Made by a program: the position numbers and the translations under genes. Below, piece by piece: positions 1,702 through 30,055 of a DNA stretch of 64,000 nt. Origin of the DNA: Eledone cirrhosa (Eukaryota); contig OZ024746.1 of assembly GCA_964016885.1 (NCBI GenBank), forward strand, positions 91,388,001 through 91,452,000. The letters run 5' to 3'. The notes beneath the pieces were generated by a model. That model saw nothing but the letters and a program-made list of their open reading frames with translations. It searched no databases and was not told the origin of the DNA. Position 1 is the stretch's first letter. Every line of letters starts with the position of its first letter.

Positions 1702-2140
1702 TGTTATACTTGGGGAGGGTCATATTTGTGTAATATTGCCAGAATTAATAACAGAACACACTCACTGTTTGGTTGGTTTTTGGGGTTTTTTTTTCGCTTC
1801 TCGCTGTCTTTTATATCGGTAATCTAAATTACTCGGTCCTCAATGTTGCCATTGACTGACCGACGGTCAAAAATAATACAGATACAATATAGACACAAAC
1901 ACATATATATAGTTTATCATATGGTTGATAAACTATATATATGTGTTTGTGTCTATATTGTATCTGTATTATTTTTGACCGTCGGTCAGTCAATGGCAAC
2001 ATTGAGGACCGAGTAAATTAGATTACCGATATAAAAGACAGCGAGAAGCGAAAAAAAAACCCCAAAAAACCAACCAAACAGTGAGTGTGTTCTGTTATTA
2101 ATTCTGGCAATATTACACAAATATGACCCTCCCCAAGTAT

Positions 2141-2396: not shown

Positions 2397-4892
2397 TCAT
2401 CATCATCATCGTTTAACGTCCATCTTCCATGCTTGCATGGGTTTGGACGGGAGTTTTCCCACTTGAGGCAAGATTTGTTGTCTTGCTCGCATAGAACTGT
2501 CTGGCGGGTTTTCTACGGCTGGATGCCCTTCCTAACACCAACCACGTTTACAGTGTGGACTGGGAGGTTTTTACCGTGTTACCTACACGGCCACATTACA
2601 GCGTGGACAGTGTGTTTTTTGTCGTGACACCTACACGACCTCATTTGTTTCGGACTGGATGATGTGGTACCAACATAACTTTACATTGAAAGGGGTGGTG
2701 TGGATGGGGTGGGGGTAGTGGGACGGAGGTGTATTTTGTTAGAGGTGCCTACTGACTGTAGTAGGTTTCACTTTGTACTTAAGTAAGGCGGGTCTTCTGT
2801 ATTACTGTGTAGCGCCAAAGATCTCGGTCCAGTGACATTGTCTTGGAGAGGTGTAAGTATGTGAGGTCGGAATTTATCAAGTCGTCCCAGGTTTTTCTGG
2901 GTCTACCTACTCCGTGGCTACCGTCTATTTTTATTGCCCTGCACTTTTTTATACAGCTGTCGTCTTTCATGCGCATCACGTGACCATACCAATGTAGTCT
3001 TCTCTTGAGTAAACAACATCTGATCACTCTTATTTCTAATTTTTCCCTTAGTTCGTTTATGCTTTGCCGTTCACGTGTATTACTATTACACATCCAGCGG
3101 AGCATGCAAGCTTCGTTCCTCTCCAGTCTGTATATCCTCTGCACACAATGCCCAGGTCTCACTGCCATGTAACATTGCTGTTCGTATGCAGGCATCACAC
3201 AGCCTACCTTACATTTTTAGAGAGAACCCTTTAGCGGCTAATAGTGGTATAAGCTCTCTGAACTTTTTCCATCCAGTTCTGACTCTAGCTACTGTACTTT
3301 CAGAGCACCCTCCACCACTGCTGATTTTGTCACCCAAGTAACAGAAGGTGTCCATTATTTCTATAGAACTATCTGTGCAATGGAATGAGCTAGTATTCTG
3401 TGGGCACTTGCTGCTACTTATTGCACCAGAGCACCGGCCACATATAAAATCTATATTCTTAGTTAGCTTACCTGTGATCCCACTACATCTTTTATGCACC
3501 AATACTTTGCATTTGGGACATAAAATGGAGTTTCTGCCTACTCCTTTCCTACACACTGAGCATGGCCATTTCCCAGATGGGACCGGTGCCCTATTTTCCT
3601 TCCTACAAACTAGAACTTTAGTCTTAGACAGGTTAATTTTAAGGCCTTTTGATTCTAGGCCATACTTCCATTTTTGGAATTTCTTCTCTAGTTCAGCCAT
3701 TGATTCAGCTATGAGCGTTAGATCATCTGCGTATAGGAATTCCCATGGGCAGCCGGTCTTGAACTCCTCTGTTATAGCCTGAAGGGCAATGATAAATAGT
3801 AGGGGGATAAGAATGGAGCCTTGATGGATGCCAACTTTTACGCTAAACTCTTCACTATGTTCGTTGTTAATTCTAACCTTGCTGACTGTTTCTTTATACA
3901 TGGCTTGTATAGCTCTCACAAGCCATTCATCAACACCTAGTTATCTAAGAGCCCACCAGATAATGGAACGGGGGACTCTGTCAAAGGCTTTCTCCAAGTC
4001 GACAAAAGCTAAGTATAGGAGTTTACTTTTAGCTAGGTACTTCTCCTGTAGTTGTCGTACAATGAAAAGAGCATCTGTGGTACTTTTACCTGACACAAAC
4101 CCGAACTGCATTTCATGTAGATCAATTTGCTCTCTGATTATTACTTTTTCTGTGACCTTCATGACCTGGTCGATTAATTTAATGCCTCTATAGTTACCCC
4201 TATCTAGGGCATCTCTTTTACCCTTGTAGCAGTTAATGATGATGCTGCTACGCTAGTCCTTCAGAACAACCCCATTCTGTATGACTTGGTTTACTATCCG
4301 GGTGACCATAGTGTGTCCCACCGTTCCAGAAGCTTTCAGCATTTCAGCAACTATTTCCGAAGGCCCAGCCGCCTTACCCGTCTTCATATCTTTAATTGCC
4401 TTACTTATTATACTACCTTTGACTAACACAGCTGGTCCCTCTATTGGATCGATGTGGGGGAGACTGTCTTTCTCCCATTTATTCTCCTCATTTAGTAGCC
4501 TTTCGTAGTGACACTTCCAAGCTACCTTCTTATCAGCATCAGTGATGGCAAGTACACCATCATCGTTAAGGACACACTTCTCCCCAACAATATCACGGTT
4601 TTCCTTGACACATTGCTTAGCAATCCTGAACACCTCACATTTTTGGTCCTCGCGTTGTAGAACATGCTTGAACTTTCTTTCCTCTGCTTCCCTTCTTGCG
4701 AAGTACATTTGTCTCCTAGATTCCCTCCTGGCCACTTGATAGTCTTCTCTACTTCCCCCATCCTACCATACTTTCCAAGCCTGCTTTCTGGCCTTAATTG
4801 ACTCCTCCACCTTACTGTTCCACCACCACGTTACTCTCCTCCTGCCTATAGGCCTGCTCCAGCCACAGTCTTCATCTGACGCCATCAGCAGG
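2397..4892 (-). mobile_element. 5'-truncated RTE-clade LINE
   Basis: Broken ORF with TWWWN, QFGF..GKSTTDA, FVDLEKAFDRVPR, VGIHQGS, LYADD, YLG and RLHWYGHVMRM/GRPRKTW motifs. ~380-bp 3' UTR ending in (GAT)n at ~2397-2410. Confidence 0.95.
2779..4890 (-). pseudogene. RTE reverse transcriptase ORF, disrupted (stops/frameshifts)
   Basis: ORF-track pieces 4253-4735, 3941-4162, 3209-3919 and 2779-3198 are colinear parts of one RT polyprotein. The endonuclease domain is missing. Confidence 0.92.
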
Positions 4893-4932
4893 TATATATA
4901 TATATATATCTATATATATATATATATATATA

Positions 4933-5272
4933 TAAGTAGAAGTTATATTTAATTTGTTGGAAGTCCGACAAACATAAATGTTTATAACTGATTTAGAGCA
5001 CTCAACAGATACTGGAGTAAATATTCAATGATATTAAATAAATGGAAACTATATTTATAAAACCATATTTATTTTATTATATATATTTCAAGGGTACCAA
5101 GACAACATTGGTAGTCACTGGATAGTCACTATCCAGTGAATTTCCAACCGATAAGGTATGTTTTTCATGGGTACGTCTCTATTTATAAAACAAACTTTGT
5201 ATTTTATCTGATGAAAGCACACCAATGTTGTCTTGGTTGCCCTTGAAATATATATAATAAAATAAATATGTT
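4933..5272. mobile_element. hammerhead-bearing short element, family H2, inverted arrangement
   Basis: Inverted arms 5064-5112 / 5221-5270. 4933-5085 is the reverse complement of 29900-30055. Abuts (TA)n. Confidence 0.75.
5200..5264 (+). ncRNA. type-I minimal hammerhead ribozyme (intact core)
   Basis: Stem I TATTTTAT/ATAAAATA; core CTGATGA; stem II AAG..ACCAA/TTGGT..CTT; GAAA; stem III T-ATAT-A (palindromic); cleavage triplet AUA after 5256. Confidence 0.8.
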
Positions 5273-5341
5273 TTTCTCATTCTATTTCCTGTTCCTTCCT
5301 CTCATCACTCTTTACTTTCTATTTATCTTCTATTTCTTCTC

Positions 5342-29773: not shown

Positions 29774-29852
29774 TACACACACATTCATTTATATGAACAT
29801 ATATATATGTATGTGTGTGTATATATATATATATGAATGTATGTATATATAT

Positions 29853-30055
29853 ATATATATTTCAAGGGTACCAACATTTTGGTACGCTCTTATCAGATAA
29901 ATATATATAATACAATAAATATGGTTTTATAAAGATAGCTTCCATTTATTAATATTATTGATATTATACTCCAGAAGAAACTTGTTGAGTGTTTCTAATA
30001 TGTTATAAACTAAATTTGTTGAATAACCAACAAATTAAATAACTCATTGCTTATA
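29853..30055. mobile_element. ribozyme-element family H2, inverted arrangement; decayed hammerhead on minus strand (29853-29901)
   Basis: RC: TTTAT-CTGATAA-GAGCGTACCAA AATG TTGGTACCCTT-GAAA-TATATA, joined to the plus-strand 3' segment homologous to RC of 4933-5085. Confidence 0.7.

Follow-up and report, generated by a model that had tools for sequence, protein, structure and literature searches.

The Hydra clade of C-terminal EN+ Penelope-like elements (PLEs) was defined by motifs (Craig et al. 2021, PMC8557442), and the accessible part of that paper already describes inverted 5′-truncated copies, one-sided tails, (TA)n targets, hammerheads in the pseudo-LTRs (pLTRs) and a short palindromic stem III. 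Pairs of hammerhead motifs on opposite strands, 100–700 bp apart, have likewise been published, in the sections available of the work on minimal PLE hammerheads (Cervera and de la Pena 2014, PMC4209133). For the PAc Poseidon element, a member of a different clade, the accessible portion of Frangieh et al. 2024 (PMC11167929) reports two internal RT starts in vitro that bound the tail, cutting and extension of both strands, AT-rich targets and an uncleaved RNA template. R2-mediated insertion yields snap-back 5′ junctions, especially after full-length cDNA synthesis (PMC11371274, in its available part). Where they could be consulted, both PMC8557442 and PMC11167929 call the route by which PLEs produce inverted, tailed insertions open.

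The locus described here lies in a 64-kb window, the whole stretch of DNA analysed, and on its sequence features is the 3′ pLTR end of a Hydra-clade PLE. It is a damaged, truncated passenger copy of a known and very abundant mobile element, and its layout is known too. We think it quite probable that it arose as a truncated head-to-head insertion of a hammerhead-bearing pLTR, in which both strands of a cut (TA)n run primed RT and one of the two cDNAs folded back.

Exact-pattern searches of the genome (3.0 Gb) returned 766 matches to a 35-mer of this hammerhead, 3,406 to a pattern of core plus stem III and 5,086 to a 37-mer of the tail, all three being lower bounds across several subfamilies; the reversed controls returned none. 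Individual copy loci of the family carry labels beginning with L. Translations of longer copies (L044, L031, L084) contain an RT with LYRDD followed by a C-terminal GIY-YIG nuclease with FNYVGST/YVGATST, and the ORFs are broken in all copies seen. Pfam assigned no family to any of three ORF fragments, so the RT and GIY-YIG assignment rests on motifs. The Hydra placement rests on the following motifs, with similarity to Hydra proteins judged by eye: RLRWHAF (the RWK motif) and KSDKTNN (DKG changed to DKT) in the RT; CNCRIKSNC (CxCX5C) and VYKCTVKT..YVGST, with one cysteine and no CCHH, in the linker and nuclease; and CKLCVEE...N..CRH, that is, CxxC and CxH around conserved E and N. The family thus has in common with the Hydra clade, as characterized in the accessible text of PMC8557442, the domain order, RW(K/H), DKT, CxCX5C, the lack of CCHH, CxxC/CxH, (TA)n targets, a hammerhead near the 3′ end with a 3–4-bp palindromic stem III, an inverted 5′-truncated copy and a one-sided tail. 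It differs in the length of the tail (94 nt versus the 30–40 bp stated there), in that of the unit (roughly 3.5 kb by our estimate versus generally <3 kb), and in stem III, which is AU-only here, with the triplet AUA, but ends in GT in each of the 26 Hydra rows of that paper's File S2, so the AU-only form is a small variant.

In most parsed loci the arms end against TA runs, and the family shows the layout of EN+ Penelope-like insertions: a pLTR or partial tandem, an inverted 5′-truncated copy and a one-sided tail. L032 and L084 span an upstream pLTR, the ORF and a downstream pLTR, with an ATG about 200 nt past the cut site; master transcripts therefore hold two hammerheads. Two other classes were rejected: non-LTR retrozymes, which form head-to-tail tandem units with a hammerhead in each, the copies here being dispersed and single or head-to-head; and Naiad PLEs, which have an N-terminal nuclease and lack a canonical hammerhead, the nuclease here being C-terminal and the hammerhead canonical in order. 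ORF fragments of other Hydra-type families, with the same WxxPP and CxCX5C motifs, adjoin copies of this family at L039:2523–3473, L072:3–1436 and L128:2092–3030, which suggests shared TA targets.

Element coordinates are given below as signed numbers relative to the predicted cut site (window 5256 = 0) on the sense strand of the element. The features are:

4893–4933, no strand: (TA)n target run in the left flank; family copies terminate in (TA)n at both fixed ends
4934–5113, minus: left arm, antisense element end from +146 (long end) to −36, with the 3′ half of the hammerhead
4934–5025, minus: 94-nt tail from the short end (+52, window 5026) to the long end (+146)
5000–5018, minus: small hairpin ACTC...GAGT starting 8 nt past the short end (folding predicted)
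5114, no strand: one-nucleotide filler base at the junction
5115–5126, minus: short folded-back piece, reverse-complementary to −128 to −117 (the initial 12 nt of the sense arm), making the hairpin 5115–5139
5127–5275, plus: right arm, sense, opening at the 5′ hotspot (CACTATCCA motif, −129), spanning the hammerhead and cut short at +16 to +19
5130–5173, plus: leader hairpin (predicted) whose inner loop is of the GNNAA type; structure retained between subfamilies, with compensatory changes
5200–5264, plus: type I hammerhead motif (descriptor scan and comparison), cut predicted after A5256
29852–30053, no strand: sister copy of another subfamily, antisense arm 29852–29901 joined to sense arm 29899–30053

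Against L044, a longer natural copy, the locus can be parsed from left to right as a (TA)n run, element antisense from +146 to −36, a single filler nucleotide, further antisense from −117 to −128, and sense sequence from −129 to about +19, after which unrelated flank begins; the long end is on the left, and the right end is shortened. The inverted arms noticed in the preliminary description of this DNA are present (5044–5112 against 5221–5289 reversed, 89% match), with two corrections: the right arm ends 16–19 nt past the cut site, and the arms of the junction hairpin themselves derive from the element, the 12 nt with which the sense arm opens having been copied in reverse. Antisense element sequence continues in the left arm as far as 4934. 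Stem II differs between the two arms, each having its own family variant; by hand count, the indel that sets them apart (window 5095–5102 versus 5233–5241) agrees between arms in all but one (L106) of 37 other multi-arm loci, so the locus may be a two-template or converted composite. The distal strand of stem I is absent.

The evidence for two primed strands comes from the outer ends. Among 98 arms from 83 chromosome-1 loci picked by the exact 35-mer, 3′ ends fall in two clusters, +52/57 and +143–146, the +52 end being read as +57/+60 through TA microhomology, so that the outer ends are fixed 94 nt apart (+52 and +146). Head-to-head pairs combine one long and one short arm in 44 of 47 scorable rows, or in 43 of 45 once a mis-paired row (L084) and a duplicate (L106) are removed, leaving one long+long and one short+short pair; ten rows with a non-canonical end were left unscored. 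A single cDNA that folds back cannot yield a second arm extending past its own start, and both cut strands therefore most likely prime, at two internal sites. The snap-back origin that had been suggested for the inversion thus fails for the large arms, whose outer ends are two different fixed sites, and survives at the centre of the junction, where 30 of 45 examined family junctions hold a short inverted piece. Predicted twin hairpins follow the two ends: ACTC..GAGT starts 8 nt past +52, and in the ORF-proximal copy L084 GCTC..GAGC starts 8 nt past +146, the latter position being altered in L032. Separately, arms of L082, L084, L132 and L040 stop at +67/+68, in the loop of the first twin hairpin, which possibly reflects a block by a protein bound there.

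The sister copy had been placed with its inversion near the cleavage site. It is indeed inverted; the implied link to cleavage did not hold, and copy ends are not clustered at the cut site. Its sense arm runs from about −10, some 10 nt before the cut site, to the long end, and its arms are joined through AAA/TA microhomology. By sequence its hammerhead core is dead, being mutated to CTGATAA (G8 lost) with the 3′ strand of stem I missing.

The 11-bp junction hairpin at 5115–5139 is real, whether drawn as 11 bp with a 3-nt loop or as 12 bp with a 1-nt loop, and the 64-kb window holds only one other hairpin of at least 11 bp that is not low-complexity. Genome-wide, in the survey of junctions that the preliminary description had proposed, 56 palindromic centres fall at the hotspot: 37 have the intrinsic CACT-ATCC-AGTG as their centre, and the other 19 include 7 with the exact centre of this locus. 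A control site 16 nt off has 2. The hairpin centre at this locus does not use the intrinsic CACT/AGTG mini-hairpin. In 30 of the 45 junctions examined among these 56 (hand count), an inverted piece breaks before −60. The piece then jumps forward to the partner arm in this locus and in L213 and L214, its exact analogues; it jumps backward, making a duplication, in at least 5 junctions and joins the flank directly in 8. Among arms that merely cross the hotspot, 1 of 47 is broken there; this control is biased to intact arms, most of them having been picked up by patterns that lie downstream of the break zone. Neither a backward jump nor a direct flank join can arise without folding back, which supports snap-back at the level of the family. 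The central hairpin likely records a new DNA copy folding back at the probable start of the element's RNA. At this locus the 1–3-nt loop means that the turn was not simply base-paired, and a plain base-paired snap-back is insufficient to explain it. Taken with the outer ends, the junctions suggest that twin priming and fold-back both act, at different ends.

The hairpin could instead be the remaining centre of a full palindrome, in which both cDNAs ran to −128/−129 and were joined, about 80 nt of the left arm (−116 to −37) being deleted afterwards or in the course of joining, with no snap-back at this locus. Three copies, L201, L202 and L211, are full palindromes with exactly this centre, a 1-nt spacer is too short for base-paired fold-back, and the copy is damaged elsewhere too, its right arm being truncated. 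We nevertheless regard such a history as unlikely: the hotspot junctions with short inverted pieces are frequent, their backward jumps and direct flank joins (L052 and L127 included) cannot be deletions and are not expected from deletion of a long palindrome, which favours fold-back, and there is no microhomology at the ends of the supposed deletion.

Fold-back at the centre raises the question of what the hotspot is. In the chromosome-1 set, the 5′ end falls at −129 to −116 in 35 of 98 arms and between −130 and −204 in only 3; in a second set, selected by the tail, some 10 arms were mis-scored past −178 (antisense parts matched other inverted loci), so that the hotspot count there is a lower bound. 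The motif CACTATYCA at −129, 129 nt upstream of the cut site, and the leader hairpin of about 45 nt that follows it are kept across diverged subfamilies, the hairpin with covariation. The simplest reading, and a likely one given these sequence features, is run-off at the 5′ end of an RNA that would start at an internal promoter; the Penelope element of D. virilis has an internal, LINE-like promoter. If the hotspot were, instead of a transcription start, an RNA-processing site, or a site of RT pausing or of annealing created by the leader hairpin together with the CACT-ATCC-AGTG mini-palindrome, this would accommodate the CACT/AGTG microhomology used by 37 junctions, the joining of L073 through the arms of the leader hairpin, and the covariation of the hotspot structure, which is expected of an RNA function rather than of a DNA promoter. 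To us this is doubtful, since the edge is sharp upstream (−129), at the 5′ base of the hairpin, while a hairpin in the template should stall RT at its 3′ base, and since the hotspot recurs in subfamilies without the CACT/AGTG pair; the D. virilis precedent also speaks for a promoter.

Under twin priming with fold-back, the insertion would have proceeded in six steps, read from DNA copies and built on what the copies display directly, namely the family, the fixed ends and their pairing, the −129 hotspot, the inverted pieces and the lack of a pile-up at the cut site. An internal promoter in the pLTR would start RNA at about −128; the element nuclease would cut the TA run on both strands; and, on RNA that had not been cleaved, an RT dimer would begin cDNAs at +146 and +52, in both cases 8 nt before a small hairpin of the template. 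One cDNA would then run off the RNA 5′ end and fold back, adding 12 nt, and the folded-back end would be joined to the other cDNA, stopped at −36. The right end may have been lost later, or have ended abnormally, at +16 to +19.

Several of these steps have counterparts elsewhere. L1 twin priming, reportedly described by Ostertag and Kazazian in 2001, has two target ends priming on the RNA. Two internal starts bounding the tail, extension of both strands, AT-rich targets and an uncleaved template are common to this family and PAc Poseidon in vitro, whereas the strict long+short pairing, the 5′ hotspot and the fold-back pieces are not described in the accessible part of PMC11167929. Priming of a short antisense stretch by the cDNA 3′ end before joining is shared with R2 (available text of PMC11371274). 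R2 and L1 belong to different retroelement classes, and in the present family the two arms frequently cover overlapping stretches of the RNA and have two fixed starting sites. The open literature searched, in the portions accessible, contained no fixed 5′ hotspot with a covarying leader hairpin, no three-piece junctions, no strict pairing and no AU-only stem III, and a search of it by title and start of abstract returned no PLE junctions with twin priming, snap-back or fold-back. For testing, the family supplies exact coordinates of both start sites, of the 5′ run-off point and of the fold-back.

The ribozyme itself was called at 5200–5264, and a descriptor scan of both strands places the window's single perfect type I hammerhead there, on the plus strand. 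Stem I is TATTTTAT/ATAAAATA (8 bp, 5200–5207/5257–5264), the core comprises CUGAUGA (5208–5214) and GAAA (5245–5248) around a 30-nt stem II region (5215–5244), and TATATATA after GAAA gives U16.1 at 5255 and A17 at 5256, hence the triplet AUA. Stem III (5248–5255) is the palindrome AUAUAUAU, spanned by A15.1–U16.1, and the type I core positions C3–A9, G12–A15.1, U16.1 and H17 are all present. Rfam found no hammerhead family in the 64-kb window or in a 321-nt stretch of the sister copy, and gave only repeat-driven microRNA matches under the gathering score; the call therefore rests on the descriptor and on comparison. A type III hammerhead with the upstream hairpin as stem I was rejected by hand, as its stem III would mismatch.

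Comparison drew on the tail-selected set, whose 97 rows are 96 real arms and one spurious match, 79 of them including the hammerhead. An intact core with a stem I of at least 7 bp is found in 61 of these 79, and, although loss of stem I complementarity in other copies had been named as evidence against the ribozyme, 77 of 79 keep at least 7 of its 8 pairs. The TA run does belong to the predicted ribozyme fold, as a palindromic stem III with AUA; what does not stand is its likeness to a microsatellite, for its length is identical in 73 of 79 arms, which makes it a fixed structural element and rules out a live or expanding repeat. In 18 subfamily rows, hand-picked by a pattern that includes stem III, pairing is kept at 98% in stem I, 91% in the base of stem II and 100% in stem III. 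Two-sided changes affect two pairs of the leader hairpin, one of the distal stem I extension and one of the stem II base, and none in stems I and III of these rows. Pair 10.1–11.1 is G-U in 11 of the 18 and A-U in 5, so that the highly conserved (though not absolute) G10.1–C11.1 is replaced in these rows.

The motif shares with minimal PLE hammerheads, in the accessible text of PMC4209133, the type I form, a palindromic 15.2–16.2, a predicted dimer, low expected activity and the pairing of motifs on opposite strands; it departs from them in a longer stem I with a predicted distal extension and in A-U or G-U, not G-C, at 10.1–11.1. Folding models put the closure of stem III in the monomer at a cost of about 1.9 kcal/mol, which agrees with the dimeric mode proposed from its palindromic loop, and predict a weak 8-bp intermolecular AU duplex (only −3.2 kcal/mol) and a stem I populated to only about 0.27 in the monomer. 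The closure cost and the weak duplex would fit the dimer-only, low-activity class of PMC4209133, as far as its available part describes it. Cutting is thus predicted to be dimer-only through the AU-only stem III, weak and likely to need protein help, and to occur in tandem master transcripts. Short-helix-III PLE hammerheads of the same type as the minimal class were reportedly studied by Lunse et al. in 2017.

In this stub the hammerhead is a passenger. A cis dimer from the inverted arms is impossible, because each ribozyme half is on a different strand, and in read-through RNA of the locus the 3′ half of the ribozyme is predicted to pair with the left arm in a duplex of about 50 bp that would sequester it. 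Of the 96 tail-selected arms, 4 at most have their start 5 nt or less from the cut site, in every case within or beside the TA run, and copy ends in that set show no clustering there as a cleavage footprint; genomic copies therefore derive from uncut RNA, as in the anole element of PMC11167929, and in L032 RT read through an uncut hammerhead.

That the hammerhead is a vestige, kept by recent common descent or as a protein-binding fold and inert even as a dimer, seems to us unlikely: the weak predicted folding, the scarcity of arms starting near the cut site and the dispensability of cleavage for insertion in an anole element (accessible part of PMC11167929) would suit it, but core positions are 97–99% conserved while the free position 7 is the most variable (with a change at subfamily level), a common A-to-G change in stem I retains pairing as G-U, and the stem II loops differ freely among subfamilies.

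The AU-only stem III with AUA is a natural variant absent among the published Hydra hammerheads in the accessible part of PMC8557442, and is simple to assay. More tentatively, and with somewhat less than even confidence, Hydra-type insertion may be a record of three signals, namely dimer starts at two sites, run-off at a fixed 5′ end and snap-back, with stem III perhaps serving as a (TA)4 nuclease target; if so, the dimer interface of the ribozyme would be where new copies nest in old ones. In L037, L105, L163 and at window 29852 the break falls exactly on the TA run of stem III, either through TA slippage or through the element nuclease cutting its own ribozyme DNA.

PLEs retain introns. A splice-donor-like AG|GTATGA lies at −101 (window 5155–5161) and an acceptor-like CTCCAG at +61 to +66, with the hammerhead between. 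An intron containing the hammerhead is unsupported: no spliced genomic copy was found, the sister subfamily does not preserve the donor, and no joint skipping the candidate intron appeared in four runs (all contigs of one study), a result silent on expression.

Other mobile DNA surrounds the locus. Immediately left of the TA run, window 4300–4890 on the minus strand holds a LINE fragment, which we take to be RTE-like, whose 169-aa frame is similar to long RT ORFs in L094 and L136. A second fold-back at window 1814–2030, with arms of about 57 bp and a TA-rich centre, surfaced as a spurious MIR4208 match and is probably a different mobile element.
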